Source: Deltaproteobacteria bacterium (GTDB lineage: Bacteria > Desulfobacterota > Syntrophia > Syntrophales > Smithellaceae). From it: DNA of 64,000 nt. Below the pieces are notes generated by a model that saw nothing but the letters and a program-made list of their open reading frames with translations, ran no database searches and was not told the origin of the DNA. The translations under genes and the position numbers were made by a program. This document shows, one piece after another, positions 2,896-46,101 of this stretch. The first letter of the stretch is position 1. Every line of letters begins with the position of its first letter. The stretch is taken from NCBI GenBank assembly GCA_026388535.1, contig JAPLJP010000026.1:1391-65390 (forward strand), read 5' to 3'.

Positions 2896-3175
2896 TAGTG
2901 AGCCAAGCTAAGAGCGAACGTAGTGACGCTCGAAGCGTAAGGCGAACTATCCCCGAAGCGCAGCGAATGGGGATCGGAGCCAAGTTAATAATGAGACCCA
3001 AGCTTCAGAAACAAAGTGTACTGAAGCTTGCTGGACGAATTATACCAGGCACGAAGTGCCGTGGTAAATAGAAGTCTTAATAAATAAGTTTTTATAAAAG
3101 AATAATCATGGAACACAAGCTTCATCATCGTAAGAGTTGAAGCTTGTGCATTGCGTTATTTCGCAAAGTGGAAAA
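2896..3175 (+). repeat. Three tandem copies of dispersed double-hairpin element (family H): 2896-2973, 2989-3066, degenerate 3106-3175
   Basis: TAATGAGACC-CAAGCTTCAG-AAACAAAGTGTA-CTGAAGCTTG-CTGGACGAATTA-TACC..GGTA; homologous to copies at 4400, 9961, 13628, 29012, 46031. Confidence 0.8.
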
Positions 3176-3317
3176 TCAAAACCCGTGGTATAAACCGATT
3201 CATAAAAACAATTTTGGCTGTAATATAATCTAAATCAATTTCATTATGATCGGTCCGATGTTAACCAAAAAAAATATATAGAAAACCGATTAGTAATGCA
3301 AAATCTAGGAGGCTCAT

Positions 3318-3929
3318 ATGGTTCTTAATTGGTGGCATTCCCCGGAAATAATAAGCAAATTACAAATAATTATAGCTGTCCTGATTATATGCCTTACTGG
3401 TTTTGGATTATTACTCAAAGTGCAGGGAGATCGCCTCAAAAAACAAATAGAAAAAGAAAAAACTACTGAATTACAAAATGAATTAACAATGACGAAGAAT
3501 AAACTGAACAACTCTGACCAAACAATTAAACAACTAACCATAGTGACAGAGCAGGCGAAAGGGCAAATAAATAATCTGGCGGATGATTCAATAAAGGCAC
3601 ACAAAACAATAGAAGCTTTAAATATTAAAGCAAAAAAAGCGGAGAGAGGTATCTCCTCAACATATGATTTCCAAGGGATTAAACGTGATATTTCACCAGG
3701 TGTCATTAAGGCAAACATGGGAGAAGAAACAGAGGTATTTAAGAAATTGGTCAACTTAGAAAAAGAGAAAAAATATCCCGATTTGGCATCTCTCTGTAAA
3801 TCACAAATAGTTAAAACTCCCGACTGGCTCACACCATATTTATTTCTTGGTGTGGCCCAAGCCAATATGGGCCTCAAGACAGAGGCTCTTTCAAATTTTG
3901 AACATGTTATTAAAAATGCTCCTGGAGCC
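3318..3929 (+). CDS. AT-rich protein (N-terminal TM helix, coiled coil, TPR-like end); no stop codon of its own, reads in frame into archease
   Basis: AGGAGG RBS at ~3307; hydrophobic IIIAVLIICLTGFGLLL; TPR-like PYLFLGVAQANMGLKTEALSNFEHVIK; ORF continues to 4352. Confidence 0.65.
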
Positions 3930-4352
3930 ATGTCCAACTACAAATTCTTTGATCATACGGCAGATATCGGTGTTGAAGTGACGGGCCGGACCAGAAGAGA
4001 GCTTTTTGTGACCGCTGCCGGGGCTTTGTTTGATGTAATGATTGAGAGCAAAACCGGTGAGGCTTCGGAAAAACAGCATAAAACAATAACGATTGAAGGC
4101 GCGGACGCTGCCGACTTGCTGATTAATTTTTTACGGGAGCTTCTTTATCTGTTCAATGGCGAAAAGTTTATAATAGTTCGGTGCGAAATGATTAAGTTCA
4201 CCAATAAAGAATTGCAGGCACGGTTGACAGGAGAATCGTTTAACAACAAAAAACATTTGATTAAAACCGAGATCAAGGCGGTAACCTATTCCGGCGCACA
4301 GGTTGAGAAACTTGAAGATCACTGGACAGCAAGGGTGATCTTCGACGTTTGA
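3930..4352 (+). CDS. Archease (RtcB activator)
   Basis: MSNYKFFDHTADIG N-terminal motif, EIKAVTY and C-terminal VIFDV; own GGAG RBS at 3924; upstream of rtcB. Confidence 0.93.
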   Translation: MSNYKFFDHTADIGVEVTGRTRRELFVTAAGALFDVMIESKTGEASEKQHKTITIEGADAADLLINFLRELLYLFNGEKFIIVRCEMIKFTNKELQARLTGESFNNKKHLIKTEIKAVTYSGAQVEKLEDHWTARVIFDV

Positions 4353-4361
4353 AAAGTATAA

Positions 4362-4585
4362 AAGTCCCCCTTTTTTAAAGGGGGAGTAAGGGGGATTTAA
4401 ATGACACTTGCTGAAATCGCGCAGAGCGAAGATTGAAGCATCAGTGGAGGTATCCCACGGCGCTTTGCGCCTGGGATAGTTCGTCCAACAAATTTTAGCG
4501 CGTTATACTTCTAAAATTTGGGACTCACTAAATCTCCCCTAGCCCCTCTTTACCCTAAAGGGCACACGTAAAAAAGAGGGGGAAA
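4362..4585. repeat. Nested repeat cluster: outer inverted CCCCCTTT..AAAGGGGG-type pair enclosing an inverted doublet of family H (4400-4530), plus TACCCTAAAGGGCAC insert at 4551
   Basis: GTCCCCCTTTTTTAAAGGGGGAGTAAGGGGGATTT ... AATCTCCCCTAGCCCCTCTT[insert]AAAGAGGGGG; the inner copies share the hairpin TCCCACGGCGCTTTGCGCCTGGGA. Confidence 0.7.
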
Positions 4586-4700
4586 ACTCATTTGAAACAG
4601 AGGTGCTTTAAATCATTTATATATTAACCGAATTTTATCCACCTCCGTCACTGCGTGACACCTCCGCCAGCGGAGGACATTAACTTGAAGAGAATGCATC

Positions 4701-6143
4701 ATGTCTGGAATTGTTTTAGAAAAGTTAGATGATAACCGCTGGCTGCTTCCTCAAACAGGCGGCATGCGCGTGCCGGGGATTATCTACGCCAATGAAAAAA
4801 TCTATCAGCTCTTACGTGGCGACGAAAGCGCGAAGCAGGTGGCCAATGTAGCGCATTTGCCCGGTATTGTAAATTACTCGCTGGCCATGCCGGATGTCCA
4901 CTGGGGGTATGGCTTTCCCATCGGCGGTGTGGCGGCCTTTGATCTGGACGGCGGCATTATTTCGCCGGGCGGCGTCGGTTACGATATCAACTGCGGCTGC
5001 CGTCTGATGACAACGAATTTAACTCTGGATGATATTAAGGCAAGACTCAGCGATTTAACCACGGCCTTGTATCAGCATATCCCTTCCGGCGTCGGCTCGA
5101 CCGGTTCGGTAAAATTATCGGGGAAGGATCAGAAGAAGGTGCTCGAAGATGGCGCGGCCTGGGCGGTCAAGGCGGGTTTCGGTTTACAGGAGGATCTGGA
5201 AACAACGGAAGACGGCGGCGCCATTAAAGGGGCCGATCCGGAGCAGGTATCGGCACGCGCGCTGGAGCGCGGCAAACAGCAGTTGGGCACGCTTGGGTCC
5301 GGCAATCATTTTCTGGAAATTGAGGTTGTTCAGGAAATCTTCGATGAAGAAGCGGCCCAGGCCTTTGGTTTGCGCAAAGGGCAGATTGCCGTCATGATTC
5401 ATACCGGTTCGCGCGGCCTGGGTTATCAGATTTGTGATGATTATCTGGCGTTGATGGTCAAGCACGCTCGCGACACAGGCATAGAGCTTCCGGACAGACA
5501 ACTGGCCTGCGCCTATTTGGAGTCGGGACGGGGGAAAAATTATCTGGCGGCCATGGCTTGCGGCGCCAATTACGCCTGGGCCAACCGGCAAATTCTGATG
5601 CATCGCACACGGGAAATATTTGAAAAAACTCTGCGCATGTCGCCGCGTGAAGTGAATATGCGGCTTGTTTATGACGTCTGCCATAACATTGCCAAGATAG
5701 AAGAATTTAGCATCGGCGGAATTATGAAGAAACTTTGCGTTCACCGCAAAGGCGCGACACGCGCTTTTCCCGCCGGACATGAAGCGGTTCCCGCGCGCTA
5801 CAAAAGTGTCGGCCAGCCGGTGCTCATTCCCGGCGATATGGGCAGCGGCTCGTATGTGCTGGTTGGTCAGGAAAAGGCGATGTCGGAAACTTTCGGCAGC
5901 GCCTGTCACGGAGCGGGCAGGGTGATGAGCCGGACGCAGGCAATCAAATCCAGCCGTGGGCGTTCCATCAGCCGCGAACTGGCCGAGCAGGGTGTTTTGG
6001 TGATGGCCGGATCCAAAGGCACGCTCAGCGAAGAAATGCCCGAAGCTTATAAAAATGTGCAGGACGTTGTGCAAGTGATGCACGATTCAGGAATTGCCAG
6101 AAAAGTGGCGAAATTGAAATCCATTTCTTGTATAAAGGGTTAA
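4701..6143 (+). CDS. rtcB: RtcB 3'-phosphate/5'-OH RNA ligase
   Basis: MPDVHWGYGFPIGGV, GYDINCG, GSGNHF, HNIA, HRKGAT, HGAGR motifs. Confidence 0.97.
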   Translation: MSGIVLEKLDDNRWLLPQTGGMRVPGIIYANEKIYQLLRGDESAKQVANVAHLPGIVNYSLAMPDVHWGYGFPIGGVAAFDLDGGIISPGGVGYDINCGCRLMTTNLTLDDIKARLSDLTTALYQHIPSGVGSTGSVKLSGKDQKKVLEDGAAWAVKAGFGLQEDLETTEDGGAIKGADPEQVSARALERGKQQLGTLGSGNHFLEIEVVQEIFDEEAAQAFGLRKGQIAVMIHTGSRGLGYQICDDYLALMVKHARDTGIELPDRQLACAYLESGRGKNYLAAMACGANYAWANRQILMHRTREIFEKTLRMSPREVNMRLVYDVCHNIAKIEEFSIGGIMKKLCVHRKGATRAFPAGHEAVPARYKSVGQPVLIPGDMGSGSYVLVGQEKAMSETFGSACHGAGRVMSRTQAIKSSRGRSISRELAEQGVLVMAGSKGTLSEEMPEAYKNVQDVVQVMHDSGIARKVAKLKSISCIKG

Positions 6144-6214
6144 TGGTGGAACCGCTTCGCTTGTTCCACAAACTGACGCCTCATGTGTTGAGAGCTGGCA
6201 CGAAAATGAAGATT

Positions 6215-6326
6215 TTCCCGCCCCTGGTGGGCGGGAATTAAAGGGCGGGGGATTTTATTAAAAGGGTTTCACCCTCCTTTTAATTTCCTCTACCCTAAAG
6301 GGCACCATGGCCGTCGAGGGAGGAAA
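6215..6326. repeat. REP-like inverted pair containing a 20-bp TACCCTAAAGGGCACCATGG insert (6291-6310)
   Basis: TTCCCGCCC-CTGGT-GGGCGGGAA hairpin; second arm CACCCTCC..TTCCTC[insert]CCGTCGAGGGAGGAA. Confidence 0.6.
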
Positions 6327-6412
6327 GATAAGAAATTGAGCATAGGACTGTTTAGTGGAAAAAATGGTGAAGCTGGTGTAAGAGGAGTTGAAAATATTTC
6401 CGGGAGAACAAA

Positions 6413-6733
6413 ATGACCGAAATCATTTTTGATAAAAATGAAGATTGGGAAAACAGAATCCTGTGCAGTGATGAATCATGTATTGGAACTATCGGTCCTG
6501 ATGGTAAATGCAGGGAATGCGGAAAACCTCACGAAGGTGAACTCCCCTCGGAACAAGGCGCAAGAATTGGTCAAGCTGTGACGACAGAAGAGCACAAATC
6601 AGTTTCTTCAACAAATTTGGATTGTGGCGACGATTGGGATAAAAGAGTTTTATGTAGTGATGAATCCTGTATCGGCACCATCGGTTCCAGCGGCCGCTGT
6701 CGTGAATGCGGCAAACCCTCTATTAACAAATAA
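6413..6733 (+). CDS. Small protein with two near-identical Cys4 (probable Zn-binding) repeats
   Basis: WENRILCSDESCIGTIGPDGKCRECGKP and WDKRVLCSDESCIGTIGSSGRCRECGKP; GGGAG RBS. Confidence 0.8.
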   Translation: MTEIIFDKNEDWENRILCSDESCIGTIGPDGKCRECGKPHEGELPSEQGARIGQAVTTEEHKSVSSTNLDCGDDWDKRVLCSDESCIGTIGSSGRCRECGKPSINK

Positions 6734-6908
6734 ACACTTCATTAGGTACCTTGCCTCAATAAGTCGTCCGTTCTCAACTAAACCGCCTGGTAAACTCACT
6801 ATTTAAACTATTTTAGTTTATCAACAGTTATTATCCATGCTGTAATCATATAAGTAGTTGAATGTCTGAATATATATTAAAAACAAAAGTAAAAATATTT
6901 TAAAAATG

Positions 6909-6951
6909 TTGACAGGTTATATAATATTTAATATTTACCAGCGGGTAAATA
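6909..6951 (+). promoter_or_regulatory. Sigma70-type promoter with overlapping 8-4-8 palindromic operator upstream of the HMG-CoA reductase gene
   Basis: TTGACA at 6909; TATTTACC-AGCG-GGTAAATA at 6932-6951 over the -10 region. Confidence 0.55.
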
Positions 6952-7037
6952 ATTTTTAGATATATAAAGTTTGGGGAAGTTGAGCGAGATATACCGGCAA
7001 TTCAATAATTCTATAAGAATAGCAAAGGGGTTTTTAT

Positions 7038-8222: not shown

Positions 8223-8343
8223 AGATACTATTTTTTAATAGTCAATAGTCACCTTAACGTTTTCCTCTTTCAAAGCTAATTGATCCGGTGGCGGGAGAAA
8301 ATCTTTTACGATTTTTAATTTTCCCATTTGTTCGTCCGTAAAT

Positions 8344-8961: not shown

Positions 8962-9022
8962 ATTCTATTTGTTGTCCGAACCATCAGTTGGATGAAAAGA
9001 AATGCCGATTTATTATGATTGT

Positions 9023-9060
9023 GTTCCTAATTGAGGATATTAATATCCTCAATTAGGAAC
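9023..9060. repeat. Perfect 38-bp palindrome with no spacer
   Basis: GTTCCTAATTGAGGATATT|AATATCCTCAATTAGGAAC. Confidence 0.95.
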
Positions 9061-9074
9061 TTGTTAATATAGGC

Positions 9075-9923: not shown

Positions 9924-9960
9924 AAAGTTTTTTATTTAATATTCTTCGGTATCATTACTC

Positions 9961-10071
9961 CTCATTCGCTTCGGGGATAATTCCAGTTGCGCTTCGAACT
10001 TCGTTTCACTCAGGGGATAGTTCAACCATCAAGTTTCAGTGCGCTACGCTTCTGAAACTTGGGTTTCACTA
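9961..10071 (-). repeat. Family H element (one full copy plus partial), overlapping the stop codon of the ACT gene
   Basis: Minus strand TAGTGAAACC-CAAGTTTCAG-AAGCGTAGCGCA-CTGAAACTTG-ATGGTTGAACTA-TCCC. Confidence 0.8.
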
Positions 10072-10500
10072 AAATTCGTACAGCTTTTCACCTGGTATAA
10101 CTGTAAACTTATGCTTCAGCAAAATGTCGATGGCCTTTTCTGGATTGTCGAAGCGGAAGATGATGACGGCGTTCTGGCCGCTTTTCTCCACAAAGGCGTA
10201 AAGGTATTCCACGTTAATGCCTTCTTTGGAAACAACTTCCATGATGCTATGCAAGCCGCCCGGTTTGTCGGGAACTTCCACGGCGACAACAGGGGTTTTG
10301 CTGACTTGAAAACCGCTATCTTTAAGAACTTTATTGGCCTTCTCCACATCATTGACAATCAAACGCAGAATGCCGAAATCAACTGTTTCCGCCAGCGACA
10401 GAGTTCGAATATTAATGTTGGCATCTCTAAGCACGCGCGTTGCATGCTCCAGCGAGCCGGGTTTGTTTTCCAGAAAAACAGATATTTGTTCTACTTTCAT
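10069..10500 (-). CDS. Tandem ACT-domain protein (PaaK-associated)
   Basis: [28 protein letters not shown]; follows paaK-like gene. Confidence 0.9.
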
Positions 10501-10517
10501 CGTAACCCCCTTATGGA

Positions 10518-11816: not shown

Positions 11817-11910
11817 GGTGGTGCCTCCCTTATATAATGGATACTAAACAGGAAAAGAGTCTAACAAAACTTTATGCCTCTGGCAAGAAGCTTTCTATAA
11901 AAAGAAGACC

Positions 11911-13554: not shown

Positions 13555-13627
13555 CAGGGATTATAATAACAATTAAAACTAAAAAAGCAATATACGCCGG
13601 GTTAAATCACTGGTCTCATTAATAGAG

Positions 13628-16905: not shown

Positions 16906-18018
16906 ATGATTAAGTCAAGACTTTGCGATCTTACAGGGATTAAATATCCCATCATTCAGGCGGGAATGGGACCATTCAGCAATAACAACCTTGGCGTAGC
17001 CGCGGCCAATGCCGGTGTTTTAGGGTTGTTCTCCACAAGCGGACTCTGCAATAAGGATTTTCTGCCATTTGTCTACAATGATTGGATCAAGAGTGCCGAA
17101 GCCAATCCGGAAGATGACATTATAGTTGCGATGGAGAAAATGCTCAAACGAGCCTATCGCTTGACGAAAGATAAAAACGGTATATTCGGCATTAATGTAA
17201 TGGTGTCCGCGGAGTTGCTTTTGCAAGCACAGATCATTATCGATACGGCAATTCGGGTGCGAGCGGCAAATCCGGGCATGGAAAAACACTTCAAGGTTAT
17301 ATTCACTTCCGCGGGCGATCCGGTGCCCTTCCGCGAGAAGATCAAGGAAGCAGGTTTTACATGGATGCATGTAGTACCATCTGTTAAGGGCGCCCTGCGC
17401 TGTAAGAAAGCGGGTGTTGATGTGATAGTTGCTTCCGGTCACGAAGGTGGTTTTCATACATCATGGGAACCGGTTCACTCAATGATACTACTGCCAGCTG
17501 TTGTGGAAGCGGTTTCCGATGAAAAGACTCTGGTATGCGGAGCCGGCGGCTTCTGCGACGGTAAAACTCTGGCTGCGGCTCTGGTGATGGGCGCTGACGG
17601 CGTCCAGATGGGCACGCGTTTTCTGGCAACGCAGGAAAGTGATTTTCCCCAGATTTGGAGACAAGGTGTTGTTGATGCCGGGGACAGAGGCACGCTTGTT
17701 GCCCGCGGATTTGTGGGGCCGGCACGCTGGATTAAAAATCCTCGCAGTGAAGAGCACGCCAAAAACACACTGCAGAAATCGCCCGGATGTTATTTGGGGG
17801 TACCGGATGATATGATGTCGATTGATATGAATTTGATCATGTTTGAGCTTGAGTCTATGAAGGCAGCCTATGATGGTGACAAGGAGAAAGCTCTTCTGGC
17901 GGCCGGCGAAGCAGTACAGCGCATCAATGACATGCCCAAAGTCAATGATTTGGTTCAGACAATGATGAAGGAGACGGAAGATATACTTAAAGGCGTGCAG
18001 ACCAAGATGCTCGGGTAG
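16906..18018 (+). CDS. Nitronate monooxygenase/FabK-like FMN-dependent enoyl reductase
   Basis: YPIIQAGMG, SGHEGGFH, GAGGFCDG, GADGVQMGTRF. Confidence 0.85.
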   Translation: MIKSRLCDLTGIKYPIIQAGMGPFSNNNLGVAAANAGVLGLFSTSGLCNKDFLPFVYNDWIKSAEANPEDDIIVAMEKMLKRAYRLTKDKNGIFGINVMVSAELLLQAQIIIDTAIRVRAANPGMEKHFKVIFTSAGDPVPFREKIKEAGFTWMHVVPSVKGALRCKKAGVDVIVASGHEGGFHTSWEPVHSMILLPAVVEAVSDEKTLVCGAGGFCDGKTLAAALVMGADGVQMGTRFLATQESDFPQIWRQGVVDAGDRGTLVARGFVGPARWIKNPRSEEHAKNTLQKSPGCYLGVPDDMMSIDMNLIMFELESMKAAYDGDKEKALLAAGEAVQRINDMPKVNDLVQTMMKETEDILKGVQTKMLG

Positions 18019-24080: not shown

Positions 24081-24115
24081 ATATGATTCTGACCTGTCGC
24101 GAATAAAACGGGATA

Positions 24116-24178
24116 TAATACCACGCAGCTTGCTGCGAAATGTTTCCCAGGCTTGCTTTGGGGTTTATACCCGTGATT
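24116..24178 (-). repeat. Dispersed palindromic element family P
   Basis: Reverse complement of AATCACGGGTATAAACCCCAAAGCAAG..GGAAAC..CGCAGCAAGCTGCG..GTATTA; other copies at 28773, 29165, 45964. Confidence 0.8.
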
Positions 24179-28281: not shown

Positions 28282-28764
28282 TTAAAGGGTTTTAGCGTAA
28301 ATAATTTTACCATCGCCTTCGTGATAAAAATTCTTTAAAAAGGCTTCCTTTTGATAGCCGCAGCTTTCATAAAAACCATGGGTTGGTTGATATTGGTGCC
28401 GGGAAGATGTTTCGACGTATACCTGCCTGCCGCCGCTGGAGCGAATGATCTTTTCTGTTTCGGCCATAAGTAGTTTTCCCAGACCTTTGCTGCGCATTTC
28501 TTTTAATACGGCTATCCAGTAGATGTCATAGCTGGAGTGAGTTGCGGGAATGAGACCATAGCAAGTGTATCCGACAACACGTTTGTTGTCTTCGGCAAAT
28601 ACAAACTGGTAAGAGCAGTCATGGGGCTGTGTCAGCTTTTCTTCCGCTAGCTCCAGAGCGATTTCTATTTCCTCGGCGGAGAAAAAGCCGCTGGATTTTA
28701 CAATATCGGCAATGGCTCCGATATCTGAATGCTGTATATGCTGACGATAGATAAAATCATTCAT
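28282..28764 (-). CDS. GNAT acetyltransferase (last gene of the kamA/ATP-grasp operon)
   Basis: GYTCYG, YDIYWIAV, RSKGLGK acetyl-CoA motif, ETSS..FYESCGY; the extension to 28860 is translated repeat sequence. Confidence 0.88.
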   Translation of the reverse strand: MNDFIYRQHIQHSDIGAIADIVKSSGFFSAEEIEIALELAEEKLTQPHDCSYQFVFAEDNKRVVGYTCYGLIPATHSSYDIYWIAVLKEMRSKGLGKLLMAETEKIIRSSGGRQVYVETSSRHQYQPTHGFYESCGYQKEAFLKNFYHEGDGKIIYAKTL

Positions 28765-28772
28765 AAAATAAT

Positions 28773-29224
28773 AACCACGGGTATGAACCCCAAAGCAAGT
28801 TTTGGAAACGTTTCGCTGCAAGCTGCTGGGTATTATACCCTCCGCTTTGCGGGATATCACGTCGAGCTTCAGTCGCTGAATAATATCACAAACAGCAAAG
28901 GTTTGCTGTTAAAGTTTTTCAGGTGGCCGTACCAGGCGAAAGTCATAAACAGGTTGGAAAAGAAAAGGAATACAATGGTTCTTAACACAGAATTTAAATC
29001 TCCTTCAAAATTAATGAGACCCAAGCTTCAGAAACGGAGTGTACAACCTGAAGGTCATCTACGACTGAAGTTTGCAGGTCGAATTAATGAAACTCAAATA
29101 TTACAAACGCAGTGCAGTAATATTTGTAAGTTGAATTATCCCTGTGTGCAAAGCACATAGGGATATCCCGCATAGCGGAGGGTATCATAACCAAAAGCTT
29201 GCTTTGGGATTCATCCCCGTGATT
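28773..29224. mobile_element. Composite ~450-bp insert: inverted family P copies enclosing a truncated gene and two tandem family H copies (29012-29164)
   Basis: P (+) 28773-28855 and P (-) 29165-29224, both ending in ACCCTCCGCT(T/A)TGCGGGAT; H copies begin TAATGA at 29012 and 29085. Confidence 0.7.
28869..28988 (-). pseudogene. 5' fragment (39 codons) of a DMT/DUF486-family membrane protein
   Basis: GAAGGAG RBS, GTG start, SNLFMTFAWYGHLK..PLLFVILFS then stop; too short for the ORF track. Confidence 0.8.
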
Positions 29225-30203
29225 TCAGCGCGTTATCGATTATCAAACCAATAGCATCGTGATATTTTATTTTTGCCTGCTCGAGCGCGGCGGCAAAACC
29301 GGCGTCAGGCGATAAACATGGATTGGAATTGATTTCCAGCACCCAAGGCTTGCCGTTATTGTCAACGCGAAAATCGACGCGCGCGTACCCGCGTAAAGAA
29401 AAAAGATTCCAGCAACGCAAGGCAATTTCGCGCAAAGATGTTATTAAACCAGTATCGTTTTTCTGAAAATTAAATTTTCGTATCGTATTATTATATTCAA
29501 AAGAATCAGCAACCCATTTGGCTCTGTAGTCAACGATTTTAAGTTTGTCCGGGGCGTAATCCTGAAATAACATTTCCGCTATAGGCAAGACTTTAACACC
29601 GGCTTTGCCCGATATGAGGGCTACGTTGAATTCACGGCCGTCAATATAGGCTTCGGCGTAACATGAGCCGCCAAGTTTTTCTTTACGGCGGCTTATTTCT
29701 TTTAAGATTTTTGCTTTACTTGTATAGCTGATAAGCGAGTCTTCATCGAGGCCGATAGAAGCGTGTTCCCAGGAAGACTTGATTAAATATGTTTTGGCAT
29801 TATCTTTTTGGGAACCGAAACCATCATGTTCTATCCAGTCCGGAGTGGAAACACAGGCATCGCGCATGATTTTCTTGGACAGAGGTTTGTTCGATGTTTG
29901 AAACACAGCTTGCGTGTCGCATCCGGTGTAAGAAAGTCGCAGGCTATCGAGAAGGGCTGGAGCAAAATAAATCAAACTGCCCTTAGAGGCCAGAGTTTCC
30001 ACAATATTGAAAACGGCCTGCGGTTTTAATGATTTCAGCTTTATTATGGTCTGATTTAAATCAAGTTCAAAAGGCAACAATATAGGTTTGTAATCCAGTA
30101 TGCGCAAAGCCCGGGCGATTGCTTCGGCTTGCTGGAGACAATCAAGTTCATCCTCTGCGGCGTCGGGCGAAATATCACTGTGTAATATCACTATTTTTTT
30201 CAT
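29211..30203 (-). CDS. D-Ala-D-Ala ligase-like ATP-grasp enzyme 2
   Basis: VFNIVE, YTG, IKSSWEHASIG, YIDGREFNV, YARVDFR, LEINSNP. Confidence 0.88.
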   Translation of the reverse strand: MKKIVILHSDISPDAAEDELDCLQQAEAIARALRILDYKPILLPFELDLNQTIIKLKSLKPQAVFNIVETLASKGSLIYFAPALLDSLRLSYTGCDTQAVFQTSNKPLSKKIMRDACVSTPDWIEHDGFGSQKDNAKTYLIKSSWEHASIGLDEDSLISYTSKAKILKEISRRKEKLGGSCYAEAYIDGREFNVALISGKAGVKVLPIAEMLFQDYAPDKLKIVDYRAKWVADSFEYNNTIRKFNFQKNDTGLITSLREIALRCWNLFSLRGYARVDFRVDNNGKPWVLEINSNPCLSPDAGFAAALEQAKIKYHDAIGLIIDNALKSRG

Positions 30204-34429: not shown

Positions 34430-34550
34430 ATATTTTTTTGTAAATTTATTAGTGTGTGACGATTTCGTCAAGTAAGAAATTTGATTTTATACAAATTTTG
34501 TATTTGGATATTAAAATTAAGCACTTAGTATTATTTGTTTTCTGATTTTT

Positions 34551-34602
34551 TAAAACAATGTTTCATTTATTGCTTGACATTTGAAACAATGTTTCATATT
34601 TG
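34551..34602 (+). promoter_or_regulatory. tetR promoter with two 15-bp operators flanking the -35 box
   Basis: TAAAACAATGTTTCA (34551), TTGACA (34574), TGAAACAATGTTTCA (34582). Confidence 0.8.
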
Positions 34603-34611
34603 TAAGCAAAT

Positions 34612-35226
34612 GTGAAGATAGAAGGTATTATGATAACAGAAAAACCAGTAATCCCTGAAAAAATAAAAGAACGTCTGTATCCTGTAGTGTTGCGACAGTT
34701 TTCCATGAAAGATTTCCACGCTGCCAATATACGTGATATATCAAAAGAAAGTGGAATCAGCACAGGAACAATCTACAAATATTTTTCATCAAAGGAAGAT
34801 CTTCTTTTTTCAATCATTGACGAACAATTGCGCGACCTGGCATCATTGCTGAGGATGCATCTTGCGGGAACCGAGGATATACGCGAGATGTTCAGAAAGT
34901 TGTTCTGGGTCACGATGAATTTCTTCGATAACAATCCCGATCTTGCGATTACGGTTTTTATAACGGTTCCACTTAAAAGTTTTATGGCGAACAAATCTTA
35001 TAAAAGAAAAACTGAAATAGATATATTAAACGGTATAATCGAAAAGGCAAAAAAAAGAGGCGCGGTTATTTCAGATATTGAAAGCCATTATTGTGCCGAT
35101 CTTTATATAATGACAACTCACAGGCATATACAAAATTGGTATGTCCATGGAATGAAATGGAAACTTGCCGACACGATAAATAATTTTTTCGATTTTTTCT
35201 GGAAAGTTGTCGCGCCTCTAGCGTAA
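34612..35226 (+). CDS. TetR/AcrR-family regulator (start 34612 or 34630)
   Basis: HTH NIRDISKESGISTGTIYKYFSSKEDL. Confidence 0.92.
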   Translation: MKIEGIMITEKPVIPEKIKERLYPVVLRQFSMKDFHAANIRDISKESGISTGTIYKYFSSKEDLLFSIIDEQLRDLASLLRMHLAGTEDIREMFRKLFWVTMNFFDNNPDLAITVFITVPLKSFMANKSYKRKTEIDILNGIIEKAKKRGAVISDIESHYCADLYIMTTHRHIQNWYVHGMKWKLADTINNFFDFFWKVVAPLA

Positions 35227-37593: not shown

Positions 37594-37609
37594 TGTTTCA
37601 CGTGAAACA
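37594..37609. other. parS centromere-like site
   Basis: Perfect consensus TGTTTCACGTGAAACA. Confidence 0.9.
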
Positions 37610-37873: not shown

Positions 37874-38725
37874 ATGGCACTTAATGAAAAGGTAATTGGA
37901 AAGAAGTACTCAGTCCCACCTGTAGAAATATCAGCTCATGAAAGCATTTATTATGCTTTGGCCTACGGCGATGATAATGACGCCTATTTCGACAACCGGC
38001 GAGAGGGCGGCATCATTGCCCCTCCCATGTATGCCGTGAAATATGCGTCGGGTCCGGTAGTAGAAATCATTATGGACCAGGAAGTGGGCCTTAATTTCAT
38101 GATGGTGGTGCACTATTCTCAAGAATTTGAGTGGCTGAAACCCGTCAAGCCCAATGACAGTATCAAAACCGAAGGCGTAATCAAAAAGATCGAGATCAAG
38201 GAAAAGGGCAGCATTTTGGGTTGGGAGACGATAAGCACCAACCAAAATGGTGAAATAGTGCTCAAGGCCAATTGGGAATTCTTCGACCGGAGTGCCGGTT
38301 CAGGAATACCTGAAGAGAAAAAAGAGGAAGAAGCGCAGGTACACGATATATTGTGGACTCAGGCCGTGAAGGTCAAAAATGGACAAACTTTCATCTACGC
38401 GGAGCCATCGGGAGACTACAACCCCATCCATGCGGACGATGCTTTTGCCAAGCAGGTCGGTCTTCCCGGCATCATACTTCAGGGACTTTGCACCATGGCC
38501 TTTGCCCATAAGGCTGTGACGGACAATCTTACCGGTCCGTATAGAAATCCACTGCTGGTGAAGAAGCTGAAAGTCCGTTTCGCCCGCCCGTTACTGCCTG
38601 GCCAGACCATCACCTACCAGGCCTACAAGATCGGTACGGAAGCGGGAGGAACAAAGTACGGCATTATTGCCAGAAATGACGAAGGGAAAGACGTACTTCG
38701 AGATTGTTGGTGTATCATCGGATAA
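37874..38725 (+). CDS. Double hot-dog MaoC/(R)-hydratase (MFE-2 hydratase-2-like)
   Basis: SGDYNPIHAD, ILQGLCT, VRFARP; N-terminal second hot-dog domain. Confidence 0.85.
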   Translation: MALNEKVIGKKYSVPPVEISAHESIYYALAYGDDNDAYFDNRREGGIIAPPMYAVKYASGPVVEIIMDQEVGLNFMMVVHYSQEFEWLKPVKPNDSIKTEGVIKKIEIKEKGSILGWETISTNQNGEIVLKANWEFFDRSAGSGIPEEKKEEEAQVHDILWTQAVKVKNGQTFIYAEPSGDYNPIHADDAFAKQVGLPGIILQGLCTMAFAHKAVTDNLTGPYRNPLLVKKLKVRFARPLLPGQTITYQAYKIGTEAGGTKYGIIARNDEGKDVLRDCWCIIG

Positions 38726-38829
38726 TTCCCGATTTCAAAGCGAAAATGATATCGAGTGTACAACAAGGCCAACAAAGATAGCGCTTTGATTCGGAATTGG
38801 AATAAAATTAAATTTTCTAGGAGGATAAT

Positions 38830-39738: not shown

Positions 39739-40166
39739 GAAAATCTTTTTGGGGGGGGGGATTTGTAATCTCTCCCCAGGGATGTTTGACGGTATCATAA
39801 AAAACACTTGTTGTGTTATATCGGATGTAGTTAGAAACATTGAAATAATTAAAGATTTTTCGTCAATCTGTTCTTCAAATGGGTATAAATATGGGTAAAG
39901 TGTTGCTGAAAATGAGATAAAGATGCTAAATACTTAATATGTTTGACAGTTTATTCGTCAGGCTAAAAAATAAAATTAAAGTTGTTTCACTACTGTTCCA
40001 ACGTTTTAGATAGATGATGATGTGAAGTAGAGAAAACAATGAGAATAAGCAATGAAAAGTTATATACCTATTTGAAATATCTTTCTTCAGGATGCCATAG
40101 TCTCGCATTAAATTACGAGGATAGATGCAACCGCAACTAAAAAAACTAAAAAAATGGAGGGAAAAA

Positions 40167-41348
40167 ATGAGAAGAGTTAATGTTATTGGTGTTGGTATGA
40201 CAAAATTTACGTCACCCAAGGCTTTGCGTCCATACACGGAAATGGGTAAAGAAGCCCTTGCTGACGCTTTTAAAGATGCAGGTATCGAATATAAAGAAAT
40301 CGAGCAAGCCTATTGCGGTTGGGTGTATGCCGACAGCTGTGCTGGCCAGAAGGTGCTCTATGATATGGGCATGACAGGTATTCCCATTTTCAACGTTAAC
40401 AATAACTGCTCTACCGGATCGAACGCTCTCTTTTTGGCGCGCCAAGCAGTCGGCAGTGGTTTAGTTGAATGCGCCTTAGCGCTCGGTTTCGAGCAGATGA
40501 AGCCGGGGGCACTGGGTATTGTCTTTGATGATCGCCCCATCCCCATGCAAACGTTTTTCGAAAAGACCTTTGAAGTTGTCCCGCCGACACCCGGCGCGGC
40601 TCCGGCGGCCATGCTATTTGGCGGGGCCGGTTTTGAGCATCAAAAGAAATATGGTACCAAGAATGAGACTTTCGCGAAGATTGCCGTCAAGGCGCGCAAA
40701 CATGCCGAGCACAATGAGCGGGCCATCTTCAGGAACCTCGTAACGGTGGAGGAAGTGTTGGCTTCGCCGCCGCAGGCCCCACCCCTGACGCGGCTGCAAT
40801 GTTGCCCACCGACCTGCGGCGCGGCTGCAGCAATTGTTTGTTCTGATAAATTTGCCAAGAAACACAAGATCAGCAAACCGATCTATATCGCGGCGCAATC
40901 CATGATCACGGATTTTGCCGGATCTTTTGAAAACCGAAGCTGCATGAGCATTTGCGGCTATGACATGACGGCCGCCGCGGCCAAGGCCGTATACAATGAG
41001 GCAGGCATCGGACCGGAAGATGTAAATGTGGTCGAGCTGCATGACTGCTTCACCGCTAATGAACTCATCACTTATGAGGGGCTGGGCCTGACCCCGGAAG
41101 GTACCGCAGAAAAATTCATAGAAGACGGTGACAACACTTACGGCGGTAAATATGTGACCAATCCTTCTGGTGGCTTGTTGTCTAAGGGACATCCGCTTGG
41201 CGCTACTGGCCTTGCCCAGTGCTCCGAACTTGTTTGGCAGCTTCGCGGTCAGGCAGGTGTTCGCCAAGTGGAAGGCGCCAAGATCGGTCTCCAGCACAAT
41301 ATCGGCCTTGGCGGAGCCTGTGTAGTAACCATGTACCGCAAGGATTGA
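40167..41348 (+). CDS. SCP-x/lipid-transfer-protein-type thiolase
   Basis: NNNCSTGS, ELHDCF, SKGHPLGATG, QHNIGLGG; GGAGG RBS supports ATG 40167. Confidence 0.9.
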   Translation: MRRVNVIGVGMTKFTSPKALRPYTEMGKEALADAFKDAGIEYKEIEQAYCGWVYADSCAGQKVLYDMGMTGIPIFNVNNNCSTGSNALFLARQAVGSGLVECALALGFEQMKPGALGIVFDDRPIPMQTFFEKTFEVVPPTPGAAPAAMLFGGAGFEHQKKYGTKNETFAKIAVKARKHAEHNERAIFRNLVTVEEVLASPPQAPPLTRLQCCPPTCGAAAAIVCSDKFAKKHKISKPIYIAAQSMITDFAGSFENRSCMSICGYDMTAAAAKAVYNEAGIGPEDVNVVELHDCFTANELITYEGLGLTPEGTAEKFIEDGDNTYGGKYVTNPSGGLLSKGHPLGATGLAQCSELVWQLRGQAGVRQVEGAKIGLQHNIGLGGACVVTMYRKD

Positions 41349-41637
41349 GTAGTAAACTGATTGCTTAAAGAAAGCGGGGGCATAATACCTGTTCTCAAAT
41401 TAGAGGAATATAAATTTTATTTTTTCATAAGATATTTCTTCAGTATAATTGAACTTGGTATCGTTTCCGCAACAACATCCGCAACGCTGACCAGGATGTA
41501 CTGTAAGGCTTTGTGTTGGTATGCGCTTTTATCACTATCAAGACGCTAGGCATCTTGCGCTTGAGCTTATGGCATTGATTGGGCGATAGGTGTAGACTGG
41601 TTCAGCCTGTTACATTTAAAAAAGGGGGGATAAATAA

Positions 41638-42876
41638 ATGTTTCAGCTCAATGAACAACAACAAATGATCCAGGATATGTTTCGCGACTATATGGCCAAA
41701 GAGATTCAACCCAAGGTGGAAGCCATGGAGGACGGCACGATTTCCAGTCTCGAACTCTCCCGTAAACTTTACTCGGTAATCGGAGCGGCCGAGATGATCA
41801 GACCGTCTCTGGAAAAGCTGGCCAAAAAGCGCGAAGCGAATCCGGAAGAACGCATAGAGATGGCCAATGTCGTGTCTGACAGTGCCGGTGCCATGGGCGG
41901 TGATCCCATGATCATGATGATCTTGTTGAAGGAAATAAGCCGGGTGAGCCCCGGCATGGCCATGAGTTTCGGGGTCAGCGTGGGGCTGGCCGGTATGGCA
42001 GTTCTCTCCAAAGGGACCGTCCGTCAGATCCGAGAATATGCCATACCATTAATGACCTTCGAGAAGATCGGTTCGTGGTGCCTGACCGAACCAGGTGCCG
42101 GCTCGGATGCCTTTGGCAGCATGAAGACCAAGGCGATACCAGACGGCAAAGGCGGCTATATCATCAACGGCACCAAAACATTCATCACTAATGCCCCCGA
42201 GGCTGATCTCTTCATCGTGTATGCCAAGCTAGATACGGGGCAACCTCCAGAGGAACGGCCGGTGCATGCCTTTATCCTCGAAAGGGGGATGCCGGGACTT
42301 ACCACGGGTAAACCGTTCCATAAATTGGGCATGCGTGATTCACCTACGTCCGAGGTTTTTATGGATACCGTACGGCTCGAGAAGAAGCACCTTATCGGGG
42401 AAAACGAACAAAAGACCGGCGGAAGGACATCTACCAAGGATAGCCTCGGCAACGAAAGATCGGGTGTACCGCCAATATGCTTAGGAATAATCGAACGCTG
42501 TTATGAGGAAAGTATCAAATATGCCAAAGAGCGCGTTCAATTCGGCCGGCCAATCGGTGAATTTCAAGCAGTACAATTGAAGATTGCCCATATGTATATG
42601 CTGTATAAAAATGTTGAGAATATCGTCTTCAGAACCGCCTGGATGCAGGCCAACGGCATTCGTGATGCCAGTTTCATCAACGCCAGTAAAGCGTATGCCA
42701 GTACCAGCGCTGTCGAAGTAACCAATATTGCTCTTCAAATTTATGGAGGTTATGGGTATATGCAAGAATATCCGATTGAAAAATTATATCGTGATGCTAA
42801 GTTGATGGAATTAGGAGCAGGGACAACTGATATTAACCTATTAACCAGCGCCCGGATTGAATTGGATTTATTTTAA
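41638..42876 (+). CDS. Acyl-CoA dehydrogenase
   Basis: WCLTEPGAGSD, GTKTFITN, QIYGGYGY. Confidence 0.9.
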   Translation: MFQLNEQQQMIQDMFRDYMAKEIQPKVEAMEDGTISSLELSRKLYSVIGAAEMIRPSLEKLAKKREANPEERIEMANVVSDSAGAMGGDPMIMMILLKEISRVSPGMAMSFGVSVGLAGMAVLSKGTVRQIREYAIPLMTFEKIGSWCLTEPGAGSDAFGSMKTKAIPDGKGGYIINGTKTFITNAPEADLFIVYAKLDTGQPPEERPVHAFILERGMPGLTTGKPFHKLGMRDSPTSEVFMDTVRLEKKHLIGENEQKTGGRTSTKDSLGNERSGVPPICLGIIERCYEESIKYAKERVQFGRPIGEFQAVQLKIAHMYMLYKNVENIVFRTAWMQANGIRDASFINASKAYASTSAVEVTNIALQIYGGYGYMQEYPIEKLYRDAKLMELGAGTTDINLLTSARIELDLF

Positions 42877-43120
42877 GGCATACAGAAGAAACGAAAACAA
42901 TGGACTTGAAAGCTGATACATCTATTGTTGGTCAGTGTGGCTTGAAAAATAATTCCGATCATCCGACAAACCTGCAAAGACAGAAGGGTATGGCAAAACC
43001 ATGAATAGCAAAGATTGAAGATTAAGCTGATTGCTTCAGTAACGTCGGGGTCATGATACCTGTTCACAAATTAGCGGGAGTTAAAGAATGTTATGATTAA
43101 ATAAGCAGGGAGGCAACTTC

Positions 43121-44116
43121 ATGAAAAAGGTATTGGTCACGGGAGCCGGTGGCTTCATAGGGTCGCACGTTGTTGAGGAGTTATTAAAGGAAAACATCGA
43201 GGTCAGAGCTCTTATCAGACCGGGTGAATCCCTGACCAATCTGAAAGGGATGGATATTGAAAAGGTCGAAGGCGATGTCCTTGATAGCGGCGCCGTCTTA
43301 AAAGCCATGGCTGGCGTCGATACCGTCTTTCACTTGGCGGCCATCTTTTCCATCTGGATGAAAGACTGGAGCAGGATTTACGAAGTCAACATGCAGGGTA
43401 CACAGAATGTGCTCTGGGCGGCAATGAAATCTAACATTGCCAGAGTCGTCTATACAAGCTCCATAGCCTCCATCGGCATCGCCCCGGGAAAGCAGCTAAG
43501 CGATGAAAAAACGCCTTTCAACCAGTATACCTTGGGAAACCACTACGTCTTGACAAAATACCTCTCTCAGCAGATCGCTCGCGGCTTTGCCACAAACGGT
43601 CTTGATTTGATTATCGTCAATCCCTGCTTTCCCTTCGGGACCAACGACACCGTCCCTACGCCCACGGGGCAGCTCATTGTCGATGTATTGAAGAGCAAAA
43701 ACATGTTTGCTTTTCCCGGCGGCATCAATATCGTGGACGTGAGGGATGTTGCTCGGGGCCATGTTCTGGCCGCCAAGAAGGGCAGAACCGGCGAACTCTA
43801 CATCCTCGGTAACAAGAATGTTACCATGAAGGAATTCATGCAACTGGTCTATCAGGCGGCCGGTTTTACGGTAAGGCCAATCTTCACTTTCCCGGTGCCT
43901 ATGCTGAAAATCGCCGCTTACGTTTTTAAATATTGGGCCGATAACATCGGTCACAAGACACCACTCACCACACCTCCTGAAGTGAGTTACGCCTCCCAGT
44001 ACTTGTTCTTCGATAACTCAAAAACGAAAAATGAACTGGGGCTGACATTCACTCCCATCGAGGAATCGCTACGGGATTCCGTACGCTGGTTCCGCGAAAA
44101 CCGCTATGCTCCATAG
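43121..44116 (+). CDS. Extended SDR (dihydroflavonol reductase/3-beta-HSD/HpnA-like)
   Basis: TGAGGFIG, FHLAA, YTSS, YVLTK, VDVRDVARGH. Confidence 0.85.
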   Translation: MKKVLVTGAGGFIGSHVVEELLKENIEVRALIRPGESLTNLKGMDIEKVEGDVLDSGAVLKAMAGVDTVFHLAAIFSIWMKDWSRIYEVNMQGTQNVLWAAMKSNIARVVYTSSIASIGIAPGKQLSDEKTPFNQYTLGNHYVLTKYLSQQIARGFATNGLDLIIVNPCFPFGTNDTVPTPTGQLIVDVLKSKNMFAFPGGINIVDVRDVARGHVLAAKKGRTGELYILGNKNVTMKEFMQLVYQAAGFTVRPIFTFPVPMLKIAAYVFKYWADNIGHKTPLTTPPEVSYASQYLFFDNSKTKNELGLTFTPIEESLRDSVRWFRENRYAP

Positions 44117-44185
44117 ATAGAAGTAAAAACAGAAAAACCATCGGCAGAAGTAGTTTAGCGACGTTTGATCAAAAAGGGAGGGCCT

Positions 44186-45925
44186 ATGTCAAGAAAGTGT
44201 TTCAGTCTGGTGCTGGCCGATATGGCCAAGTATAATCCAAGAGGAAAGGCAATCATTTACGGCGAGAAAAAAGTTACCTGGAAGGAGTTGAACAACCGGG
44301 TCAACCGCTTTGCCAACGCTTTGAAGTCCTTGGGCATAAAAAAAGGCGATCATGCCATCATTCTTTTTCACGACTGCCCCGAATTCATCGAGGCCAACTA
44401 CGCCCTGCAGAAGATCGGCGCTGTGCCCATCCCCATGAACTTTCGTTTTGTCGCCCGGGAGATTGAATACCAGACCGATCAATCCGATTCGGTGGCCTTC
44501 ATCTGCGAAGACATCTTTATGGAACAGATACAAAAGGCACTGCCCAACTGCAAAAAACTCCAGACGGTGATCTGCGTGAGAAGGGGTATGGCGCCCCTAC
44601 CGGCGGGGATGCTGAACTACGAAGATCTCATGGATAAACATCAGCCTACGGAGCCGCCGCCGGTCACCACGGAGGAAGACATCTGTACTATCTCTTATAC
44701 GGGCGGAACCACGGGAATGCCCAAAGGAGTAGTTTTGACCTACAGAAATTTCTGGAATCTGGCCGGATCCATGTTCGGAGATCTGCTGGGCCGCGTGGCT
44801 GGCGATCCCAAGGCAAACTTCGGCCGGATCATCGGCACGCTGATGCCCATCCCGGGTATGGAAAAGACAATCAATACACTGATCGCCCCTAAAGGCGTCC
44901 GGCCTTTTCTGGCCCGGTCGATTCCCCGCCTCCTCCCCAAAACCTTTGGCACCCCCATGGGGCCTCTGCTCAACCGATTCACGGGTGGATTTTCCATGTT
45001 TCTCAACATGCCCCTTTTTCACATGGCCAATTACCAGGTTTTGATTATTGGCCCCATATCAGGGCTGTCGCGGTTCATCTTGCGACCCGGCATCAGCTTC
45101 GACCCAAAGGAGGCCATGGAGATCATCGCCAAGGAAAGACCCATACTGGTTATGTTCGTCCCCACCCAGTGGAAGAAGGTTCTGGACTACCCCGACCTGC
45201 AAAAGTTCAACAGAAAGTCTGTGCTAGTGGCCATGACCGGTTCGGGCGTCAATCCCGCCCAGCAGAAGAAGAGGATTCTCAAAGAATTTCCCAACGCCCT
45301 GGTGGCTGACGTCTTCGGTCAGACGGAGATGACTCCCGACACGAGCATCCGCTTGGATGCTTCCGAAGAAAGCCTAAAGGATCGCTGTGTGGGAAAACCC
45401 CTGGCCGGCGTCGAAATCAGAATCGTTGATGAAAGGGGGAAAGATGCCGCACCCGGAGAAGCGGGTGAGATCCTTTACCGTAGCGGCACCATCATGAAGG
45501 AGTACTATGGCGACCGGGAAAAGACTGCGGAAGTGATCAAGGACGGCTGGTTCCATTCCGGCGATCTGGGTTATCTGGACAAGGACGGGGAGATTATTGT
45601 CGTAGACCGGATGAAGGAGACGATTTCCACGGGTGGTGAGAAGGTCTATCCCCATGAGGTGGAGGAGATTCTGGAGTCCCACACCAAGGTGGAACACGCC
45701 TGCGTGATCGGCGTTCCCGACGAGACATGGGGAAGTACCGTTCGGGCAATCATAGTTCCTTATGAAGGAGAACAGTTAACACAAGAGGAGATCATTGATT
45801 GGTGCCGTGACAAGATGACCGGCTTCAAGAGGCCCAAGTCCGTGATCATCGTCGATGCCCTGCCCTTAAGCCCTGTGGGAAAGGTGATGCGGGCCCAGGT
45901 GAAAGAGAAGTACGGCCGTCCTTGA
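44186..45925 (+). CDS. Acyl-CoA synthetase (ANL superfamily) with internal amphipathic insertion
   Basis: YTGGTTGMPKG, FGQTE, FHSGDLG, GGEKVYP, VGKV; GGAGG RBS supports ATG 44186. Confidence 0.88.
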   Translation: MSRKCFSLVLADMAKYNPRGKAIIYGEKKVTWKELNNRVNRFANALKSLGIKKGDHAIILFHDCPEFIEANYALQKIGAVPIPMNFRFVAREIEYQTDQSDSVAFICEDIFMEQIQKALPNCKKLQTVICVRRGMAPLPAGMLNYEDLMDKHQPTEPPPVTTEEDICTISYTGGTTGMPKGVVLTYRNFWNLAGSMFGDLLGRVAGDPKANFGRIIGTLMPIPGMEKTINTLIAPKGVRPFLARSIPRLLPKTFGTPMGPLLNRFTGGFSMFLNMPLFHMANYQVLIIGPISGLSRFILRPGISFDPKEAMEIIAKERPILVMFVPTQWKKVLDYPDLQKFNRKSVLVAMTGSGVNPAQQKKRILKEFPNALVADVFGQTEMTPDTSIRLDASEESLKDRCVGKPLAGVEIRIVDERGKDAAPGEAGEILYRSGTIMKEYYGDREKTAEVIKDGWFHSGDLGYLDKDGEIIVVDRMKETISTGGEKVYPHEVEEILESHTKVEHACVIGVPDETWGSTVRAIIVPYEGEQLTQEEIIDWCRDKMTGFKRPKSVIIVDALPLSPVGKVMRAQVKEKYGRP

Positions 45926-45963
45926 AATAGATAAAGACGAATGATGAAAATTGCATTTGCAGT

Positions 45964-46101
45964 AATCACGGGTATAAACCCCAACGCAAGCTTTGGAAAC
46001 AAAGTCGAAAGCTCGCTGCGGGGTATTACACCCTCCGCTTTGCGGGATTGTTCGACTTACAAATTTCAATTCACTTCGTTTTTGAAATTTGAGTCTCACA
46101 A
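45964..46101. repeat. Family P copy (45964-46028) joined to a minus-strand family H copy (46031-46101)
   Basis: AATCACGGGTATAAACCCC...GGGTATTA-CACCCTCCGCTTTGCGGGAT-TGTTCGACTTACAAATTTCAA..TTGAAATTTGAGTCTCACAA. Confidence 0.8.

Follow-up and report, generated by a model that had tools for sequence, protein, structure and literature searches.

Repetitive extragenic palindromic (REP) sequences and the related BIME and REPIN repeats occur as hundreds of extragenic palindromic units, keep their pairing through compensating changes, form mosaics in both orientations and show an inheritance that looks vertical and lineage-restricted. All of these traits are shared by a repeat family that we describe here from a 64,000-nucleotide (nt) stretch of DNA of a Deltaproteobacteria bacterium of the Smithellaceae (GCA_026388535.1, contig JAPLJP010000026.1, forward strand, positions 1,391-65,390), the whole of which is referred to below as the window. 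The family is built from hairpin modules, named H1, H2 and X, and a nested 21-nt mini-insert. It is probably a genus-wide, high-copy family of non-autonomous mobile DNA, and we read it as a new example of REP/BIME/MITE-like repeats (MITE, miniature inverted-repeat transposable element).

The sections of PMC2817692 that treat REP-RAYT systems give as their defining feature a rayt gene bordered by a pair of REPs of its family in inverted orientation, and describe a head, GT(A/G)G, located 5' of the palindrome and the co-occurrence of RAYT with the REP family. In contrast, the H1 family has no flanked rayt and no tracking with Y1 genes, and its head is T(A/T)(A/G)TGAG, not GT(A/G)G. H1/X units are also longer than REPs, multi-part and GNA-tipped, and they form a mobile unit with unlike ends and (A/T)AT at both junctions. 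The ends of IS200/IS605 insertion sequences (ISs), of which the PATEs are gene-less derivatives, are similar in lacking terminal inverted repeats, in having differing subterminal hairpins and a short fixed sequence at the insertion point, and in following a logic of single-stranded DNA (ssDNA) structure. Unlike these ends, H1+X has a junction trinucleotide that appears duplicated (one TAT/TAT case favours duplication); H1 shows no replication-strand bias, and no TnpA/TnpB element with H1/X ends was found. The Correia/NEMIS, RUP and ERIC MITEs are small, high-copy elements with short AT-rich targets and a 2-3-base pair (bp) duplication, and are able to overlap the ends of genes and to provide stop codons. 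H1+X resembles them in small size, copy number, AT target and stop supply; their terminal inverted repeats match those of a parent DDE IS, whereas none are detectable in H1+X. Pneumococcal BOX elements likewise combine a few module types in variable number and order, have strong predicted folding and have no known transposase; to our knowledge BOX modules are not built on GNA-tipped hairpins. Integron attC sites are, as here, imperfect hairpins with extrahelical bases and a structure conserved above sequence, and their R''/L''...L'/R' cores read RYYYAAC/GTTRRRY; unlike attC, the H family comes without IntI, R/L core motifs or cassette arrays. Lastly, the parts of the review PMC13037366 on d(GCGNAGC) mini-hairpins describe them as ssDNA replication signals, at the phage G4 origin and at ssiA. 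The same heptamer GCGAAGC and its GNA variants tip H1 and H2, in this case on hundreds of chromosomal repeats and not in a single priming signal of single-stranded replicons.

Hairpin modules with compensated pairing

A dispersed family with structure conserved over sequence had been proposed from about 12 copies in the window. An nhmmer profile seeded with seven window copies gave 416 matches at E ≤ 1 in the source genome of the window (G000; 2.86 Mb, 193 contigs). Iterated once over that genome, the profile gave 460 matches, 364 of them at E ≤ 1e-3, and none in the reversed genome sequence used as a control; the H1 matches occupy 0.93% of G000. Within the window, the profile recovered nine of the named copies (2910-2974, 2988, 4452, 9998, 13629, 13742, 29010, 29084 and 46031) and a covariance model eight, the copy at 29012, with its 21-nt loop insert, being missed. 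Neither model detects those named at 3106, 4400 and 9961. Inspection by eye shows short sister variants at 4400 and 9961 (TAATGACAC.../TGAGTGAAAC...), that at 4400 resembling a 'TAATGACACTCGCTGA...' variant repeated elsewhere in G000, and no more than a generic hairpin at 3106. Four X modules had been overlooked (24111-24178, 28773-28854, 29166-29224 and 45964-46047). The copies in the window are as follows:

2892..2975, plus strand: divergent H1+H2 that starts at the gyrA stop (TAG TAG TGA); covariance model R1 43.8 bits, E 5e-8; nhmmer 2910-2974, E 7e-5
2985..3068, plus strand: H1 with an H2-like hairpin (TACCAGGCAC GAA GTGCCGTGGTA); covariance model 92 bits, nhmmer E 1.8e-17
4400..4450, plus strand: short sister variant (TAAATGACAC...) sharing its H2 with the next copy; by eye, neither model
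4451..4534, minus strand: canonical H1+H2; covariance model 98 bits, the top match of G000
9961..10020, minus strand: short H1 variant embedded in the H2 of the following copy and bordered on either side by TCCCC; by eye, neither model
9992..10075, minus strand: H1, the head TAG being the stop of the open reading frame (ORF) 10069-10500; covariance model 85.6 bits
13626..13709, minus strand: H1+H2, first of a tandem pair; covariance model 87.6 bits
13741..13824, minus strand: H1+H2, second of the tandem pair; covariance model 91.8 bits; DNA fold -12.3 kcal/mol, z -3.4
24111..24178, plus strand: solo multi-hairpin X module ending ...CATACCCGTGATT; X profile E 1.6e-16; inverted repeat with 28773-28840
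28773..28854, minus strand: X module forming the left margin of a 428-nt repeat cluster; X profile E 1.8e-23
29010..29086, plus strand: H1 split at about 29044-29064 by the 21-nt mini-insert (ACCTGAAGGTCAT...); nhmmer E 1.5e-9, mini-insert by regex match
29081..29165, plus strand: H1+H2 overlapping the preceding copy at GAATTAATGA; covariance model 92.8 bits
29166..29224, plus strand: short-form X closing the cluster (...CATCCCCGTG, then ATT); X profile E 3.5e-6; junction compared with G016 and G043
45967..46099, minus strand: complete composite of H1 (46029-46105) and X (45964-46047); a 133-nt insertion that neither G043 nor G016 carries, with an AAT at each junction

The H1 core is a 54-nt hairpin in which 4 bp are followed by an invariant tandem G.A, a further 4 bp, a bulge of 2 nt and then 10 bp. 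On the TAATGAG strand it reads T(A/T)(A/G)T GA GAC(Y) followed by an arm of 10 nt, a loop of 12 nt, arm', two unpaired nucleotides and (R)GTC GA A(Y)TA; the consensus head is TTTAATGAGAC, with the variants TAGTGAG and TTGTGAG. With the copies aligned on sequence alone and numbered by the 81 columns of the profile, stem A comprises pairs 3-56 to 6-53, stem B pairs 9-50 to 12-47 and stem C pairs 13-44 to 22-35, and the 2-nt bulge anticipated by the original prediction falls at columns 45-46. The tandem G7.A52/A8.G51 is kept in 253 and 251, respectively, of 260 distinct copies. A two-pair mini-hairpin (25-31, 26-30) within the H1 loop encloses a triloop. The second hairpin, H2 (TCCC...GGGA), usually lies downstream of H1.

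The pairing of these intergenic modules is maintained by compensatory change, as had been read from the window copies. Over 20 pairs in the 260 distinct copies, 87.4% of cells are Watson-Crick, compared with 64.6% in column shuffles (maximum 65.8%, n = 200) and only 13-31% for slid partners. Three pair types occur at many H1 positions (at 22-35, for example, GC in 90 copies, AT in 57 and CG in 38), and 271 copies include 104 distinct 5' stem arms, with at least nine of the ten stem C pairs formed in 178. Among 5200 cells, the non-Watson-Crick ones include 203 G:T vs 130 A:C. In a cross-genome alignment of 26 copies, which had been fitted to the covariance model and therefore leans towards structure, 24 of 29 pairs have double changes, single-side changes in helices 1-2 number just nine, and pairing stands at 90.6% vs 72.5% when shuffled (0/500 reach the observed value) and at most 40.7% for slid partners.

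The mini-loops are largely of the GNA and AAA types that had been noted in the window: GNA accounts for 57% of H1 and 72% of H2 triloops, the remainder being mostly AAA/ATA, and GCGAAGC forms the H2 tip in 59 of 138 copies. Both the G.A tandem and the GNA tips are confined to one strand. The unusual stability of GNA triloops in DNA, on which the original prediction had drawn, agrees with the passages of the 2026 review PMC13037366 devoted to them, where GNA-type mini-hairpin tips are extraordinarily stable in DNA and not in RNA: d(GCGAAGC) has a melting temperature of 76.5°C and r(GCGAAAGC) one of 39°C, and among the 64 GCNNNGC triloops GNA alone gives a mini-hairpin. Folded as DNA, the 45967-46099 unit reaches -30.2 kcal/mol, vs -14.0 ± 2.7 for its shuffles.

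Mobility, distribution and insertion sites

X is present in 103 copies in G000, 69 of which are directly preceded by H1, and H1+X moves as a discrete unit of approximately 80-170 nt. Both of the closest relatives, G043 (approximately 85-92% identical to G000 around this site) and G016, lack exactly the 133-nt unit at 45967-46099, and the BLAST alignments on its two sides abut with a 3-nt overlap. The predicted mobility is borne out by a comparison of approximately 1.07 Mb of G043 with G000 (junctions at N runs set aside, events read by eye), in which orthologous sites differ by 11 clear single-unit H1+X indels, nine filled in G000 and two in G043; five further indel events were too diverged or compound and were left unscored. 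Some insertions are private to G000 and others are confined to its nearest relative; the family has thus been active since these two species parted.

Each insertion sits at an (A/T)AT that is later present at both junctions. On the CACGGG strand (3 nt before the unit/last 3 nt of the unit), the junction trinucleotides are AAT/AAT in seven of the 11 events and TAT/TAT in one, where the empty site is also TAT; in the other three they are one base apart (GAT/AAT twice, AAC/AAT once). Empty sites hold the junction trinucleotide once. A trinucleotide found at both ends would look alike as a target duplication or as a shared crossover core. We were unable to identify terminal inverted repeats, as the local score of 18 (shuffles 13.4 ± 2.7) was equalled or exceeded by 45 of 500 shuffles. 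A reading of the flanking ATT through base pairing with the AAT inside the H1 foot is not supported, because this AAT is unchanged in the TAT/TAT event, the one with a variant junction.

Larger differences were also seen at repeat-bearing sites. In place of the 428-nt cluster at 28775-29221, G016 has 19 nt and G043 has a small gene, of which G000 retains just a remnant between the repeats of the cluster. At the tandem pair beginning at 13626, G016 has one copy and G043 has unrelated DNA. The repeats make up about 1% of G000 by the H1 profile alone and mark most places where otherwise syntenic Smithella genomes differ; they therefore matter for the assembly, binning and comparison of these uncultured alkane- and fatty acid-degrading syntrophs. 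Contig breaks in G000 are not tied to the repeats: 15 of 386 contig ends carry one, vs 4.4% of random windows.

The covariance model matches 35 of 36 genomes of the genus, with 0-14 matches per genome in ten of the 36 and at least approximately 126 in fifteen. A single-copy DNA query matched 20 of 24 same-genus genomes and nothing in 16 further genera belonging to the order. When 185,579 species genomes were scanned for an exact pattern, at least 122 loci were obtained; among the matches listed, most are in metagenome-assembled genomes (MAGs) labelled Smithella, Smithellaceae, Syntrophaceae or delta proteobacterium, and a few are in MAGs labelled otherwise. In one genome labelled outside the group (G052), all seven matches lie on a single contig, which suggests mis-binning. 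Our literature search on REP- and MITE-type repeats in Smithella or Syntrophaceae found no paper on these repeats.

H1-like matches were also seen in two further genomes with other labels: G053 (locus L168, labelled Bacteroidales) has 14 over 12 contigs, at up to 75 bits, and G056 (locus L148, labelled Omnitrophota) has 10 weak ones spread over many contigs. These might be explained by horizontal spread, by a related family or by chimeric bins.

On a crude longest-ORF map of G000 (83% coding), on which our intergenic and orientation calls rest, 311 of 364 copies fall between genes. Copies that start precisely at a stop codon, two of which had been pointed out in the window, are a general feature: 21 of 329 heads supply the TAA or TAG stop of an ORF of 166-620 aa, compared with a chance expectation of approximately 0.85 (from 2453 ORFs and 476,007 intergenic bases), two more supply TGA, and no other offset in these 329 heads supplies ORF stops. 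One strand opens with TAA/TAG-TGA, so that insertion at the extreme end of a gene restores a stop, which explains these copies. At gyrA, for example, the gene in relatives ends ...GAAGATTAA; in G000 the last codon is replaced and is followed by the element's TAG TAG TGA.

Copies abut and nest, as at 29010/29084, where the head-to-tail overlap reported at 29081 was confirmed, and at 9961-10020, where a short variant lies inside an H2. No single exact rule could be derived for H1-to-H1 array junctions.

The 21-nt mini-element (...TAACCTAAAGGTCAC/TACCCTGAAGGGCAT...), seen in the window at about 29044-29064, has 116 regex matches in G000, often in short arrays. It sits within loops of H1, H2 and other, unrelated hairpin repeats, and about two dozen among 70 matches listed lie between H1-type hairpin arms. 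Hairpin tips seem to be insertion hot spots.

Possible mechanism and competing explanations

The tandem sheared G.A, the 2-nt bulge and the C-GNA-G tips all lie on one strand, from which we infer that the element may be recognised by its folded DNA shape and not by sequence-matched ends, most likely in transient single strands or extruded cruciforms. A trans-acting enzyme encoded elsewhere would move the unit. New copies would survive mainly between genes, and self-targeting of feet and loops that contain AAT/ATT could give rise to the arrays and nested mosaics.

Several results weigh against an interpretation as non-autonomous mobile DNA of this kind. No mover was found. None of 10 homologous Y1 loci in relatives has H1 within 1.5 kb. 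Neither PF01797 nor PF01548 has a match in G017, a repeat-rich genome (98% complete, in 10 contigs) with 105 model matches, and G000 has no TnpB (PF07282), no serine recombinase and no integron integrase over cut-off (the best TIGR02249 match scores 80 bits vs 265). We were also unable to find a gene-carrying H1...X candidate in G000: 13 pairs spaced 300-5000 nt apart enclose no obvious transposase, as judged without a family scan, and nine ORFs translated from between such pairs include what we take to be SmpB and DapA. A 3-nt duplication is commoner in double-strand transposition than in known single-strand (HUH) elements, the junctions were tabulated by eye with the five events unscored, and nearest-neighbour folding of a 139-nt unit as DNA gives z -5.9 and -5.6 for its two strands, which fold about equally. 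MAGs often lose IS elements, and the absence of an enzyme is therefore weak evidence, except in the few nearly closed genomes.

IS110 is present in G000 as one copy that is not flanked by H/X, and IS110 counts do not follow the repeats in the genus (15 in G049, with few repeats, and 0 in G017, with many). The IS200 of G016 was rejected as a parent: its ends are unrelated, and one copy merely landed beside an H-type element. No H1 was found near the IS200 loci of G006, G020, G009 and G002 (L107-L110).

As a side observation, the IS200-type element of G016 (L104-L106) is 552-566 nt long, has at least nine copies and inserts after T runs; in seven among the copies listed, there is one in-frame TAG inside tnpA.

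The alternative that survives best, which we nevertheless regard as unlikely, is a double-strand MITE, that is, a deletion derivative of a DDE IS with a 3-bp target duplication at AAT, the parent being unassembled or on another replicon. It would account for an (A/T)AT that stands at each junction and a single time in the empty site, including the TAT/TAT/TAT case in which the internal AAT at the H1 foot stays the same; the units are small and high-copy and favour AT-rich intergenic targets, and IS elements are under-assembled in MAGs. Its difficulties are that there are no terminal inverted repeats, that the two ends are different hairpin modules, and that among the IS elements looked at none is a parent with ends CACGGGTATGAAC... 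and ...GGAGTTTCAC. Recognition of double-stranded DNA would, moreover, not account for why intrastrand pairing is strongly selected, nor for the GNA tips and the strand-specific tandem G.A.

The original prediction had favoured substrates of an ssDNA recombinase or HUH nuclease. In its REPIN/REP-RAYT form, by which the hairpins are REPs cleaved and copied as ssDNA by a RAYT-like Y1 (HUH) transposase of G000, we consider this distinctly unlikely. As with REP/BIME, the copies of the family are numerous, extragenic and palindromic, keep compensated pairing and cluster in mosaics; its loops favour ssDNA, and G000 has three PF01797 (Y1) genes over cut-off, which by their motifs are presumably RAYT-like. 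None of the three is bracketed by H1/X, however: that on C115 has no repeat within 3 kb, that on C127 has repeats on one side only, and that on C66 lies within a 25-nt inverted pair of its own and between direct copies of another repeat of approximately 130 nt. The homologous loci described above give the same picture. Nor do PF01797 and the repeats co-occur over the 36 genomes: the domain is missing from five repeat-bearing genomes (G017, G041, G024, G001 and G051) and present in seven repeat-poor ones (G007, G010, G021, G004, G023, G002 and G045). The difference in the head sequence argues in the same direction. Replication-strand bias was not seen either: the 2.09-Mb contig of G006 has 93 H1 matches (50 plus, 43 minus), and within 216 kb-2.0 Mb of this contig (G006:C7), a single skew domain in which the GC skew sampled at 20 points (20 x 20 kb, one contig) is mostly negative, there are 40 plus vs 37 minus. 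An HUH (IS200/IS605) model fits poorly, because of the 3-nt (A/T)AT at both junctions and this lack of strand bias.

The repeat around the C66 Y1 gene is unrelated to H1 and X. It is approximately 130 nt long (GGGGCTGTTGAAAAACGC...GAACATTTTTGAACAGCCCC) with a long foldback, has about 25 copies in G000 and flanks the RAYT-like gene (L014:1501-2202) in direct orientation at L014:1202-1326 and 2235-2361, with the 25-nt inverted pair TAGGG..CCCTA hugging the gene; repeat and pair may be this gene's own REPIN-like partner. Two of the three Y1 genes adjoin paralogous genes of approximately 270 aa (L001:2455-3261 and L002:2364-3185) that start MKEKNGRSGNK and have a secreted or lipoprotein look. The recurring pair may be a conserved module.

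We think it very unlikely that the hairpins are functional RNA, whether a small RNA, a stabiliser or attenuator at mRNA 3' ends, or a guide or scaffold RNA of a recombinase. Covariation is extensive, many copies lie just after genes (21 at the stop codon, as described above), and REPs of E. coli stabilise upstream mRNA. Yet orientation to genes is random, with 92 copies in the same direction as co-directional neighbours vs 84 in the opposite direction and 48 copies in divergent gaps vs 51 in convergent gaps; G-U intermediates are rare, C-GNA-G triloops are weak in RNA, and no T run follows the hairpins in the window copies read. Rfam, used as a control, has no match (none at gathering score over the whole window, and none at E ≤ 1 over 2800-4700 and 28700-29300). 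The DNA-level action that had been proposed is consistent with the intergenic, orientation-neutral placement, the rarity of G:T and this lack of an Rfam match, and our conclusion is that DNA is the level at which selection works, the TAATGAG strand being mildly preferred.

That the hairpins are integron-like attC sites marking cassettes exchanged by a tyrosine recombinase on folded single strands is hardly credible: an imperfect hairpin with a 2-nt bulge and conserved structure, together with several gene-sized differences between the window and G016/G043, would suit such sites, but G000 lacks an integron integrase over cut-off, neither the consensus nor the copies read contain the core motifs (as the original prediction had also held, its proposal of cassette sites notwithstanding), the flanking genes are syntenic housekeeping genes such as gyrA, and the gene-sized indels at 16906-18018, 37874-38725, 41638-42876 and 47989-48789 are not bounded by family members.

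Returning to non-autonomous mobile DNA, the family combines features that are kept apart in known classes: REP-like compensated hairpins without a RAYT, asymmetric IS200-like ends, an apparently duplicated trinucleotide, the absence of strand bias and DNA-specific GCGNAGC tips. A mover, should one be found, might be a structure-reading recombinase of a new kind; should there be none, the family would lend itself well to the question of how such repeats persist. We think it improbable, as a more far-reaching idea, that this is an undescribed class of structure-specified mobile DNA, in which an enzyme outside the Y1/HUH, DDE, DEDD, serine-recombinase and integron-integrase sets would read a folded strand by its tandem sheared G.A, its bulge and its DNA-only GNA tips and join it at an AT core, the tips and feet would serve as landing pads for more copies and for the nested 21-nt mini-element, and copies would persist vertically. 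If true, this would be a self-nesting ecosystem of hairpin parasites, passed vertically through a whole genus of syntrophs.

Other repeats and gene differences

The ORF that follows gyrA in the window (3318-4352) consists of an N-terminal stretch of approximately 200 aa and a C-terminal part that we take to be archease-like. In G016 and G043 the same gene begins at the archease part (MPKYKFFEHTADIG...), and the extra DNA of G000 lies between two repeat clusters.

Another indel-forming repeat of approximately 85-120 nt (GGAGCC.CCTCCGGCAGGAGCCGGAGGCTCC...CCCGCG...) is present or absent at several sites when G000 and G043 are compared:

G000, C20:9489-9589: indel repeat of approximately 85-120 nt
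G000, C169:8351-8460: the same repeat
G043, C21:15187-15274: the same repeat
G043, C3:2865-2745: the same repeat
G043, C70:7508-7615: the same repeat

At 41327-43085, the window has a tandem duplication of a gene of approximately 410 aa (41638-42876, beside 40125-41348 and 43121 onward), of which G016 has one copy fewer. Inverted duplicates of 55-56 nt, 89-95% complementary and 22 kb apart, are located at 34546-34797 and 56855-57017; they include AAACAATGTTTCA palindromes upstream of apparently paralogous small regulator genes.

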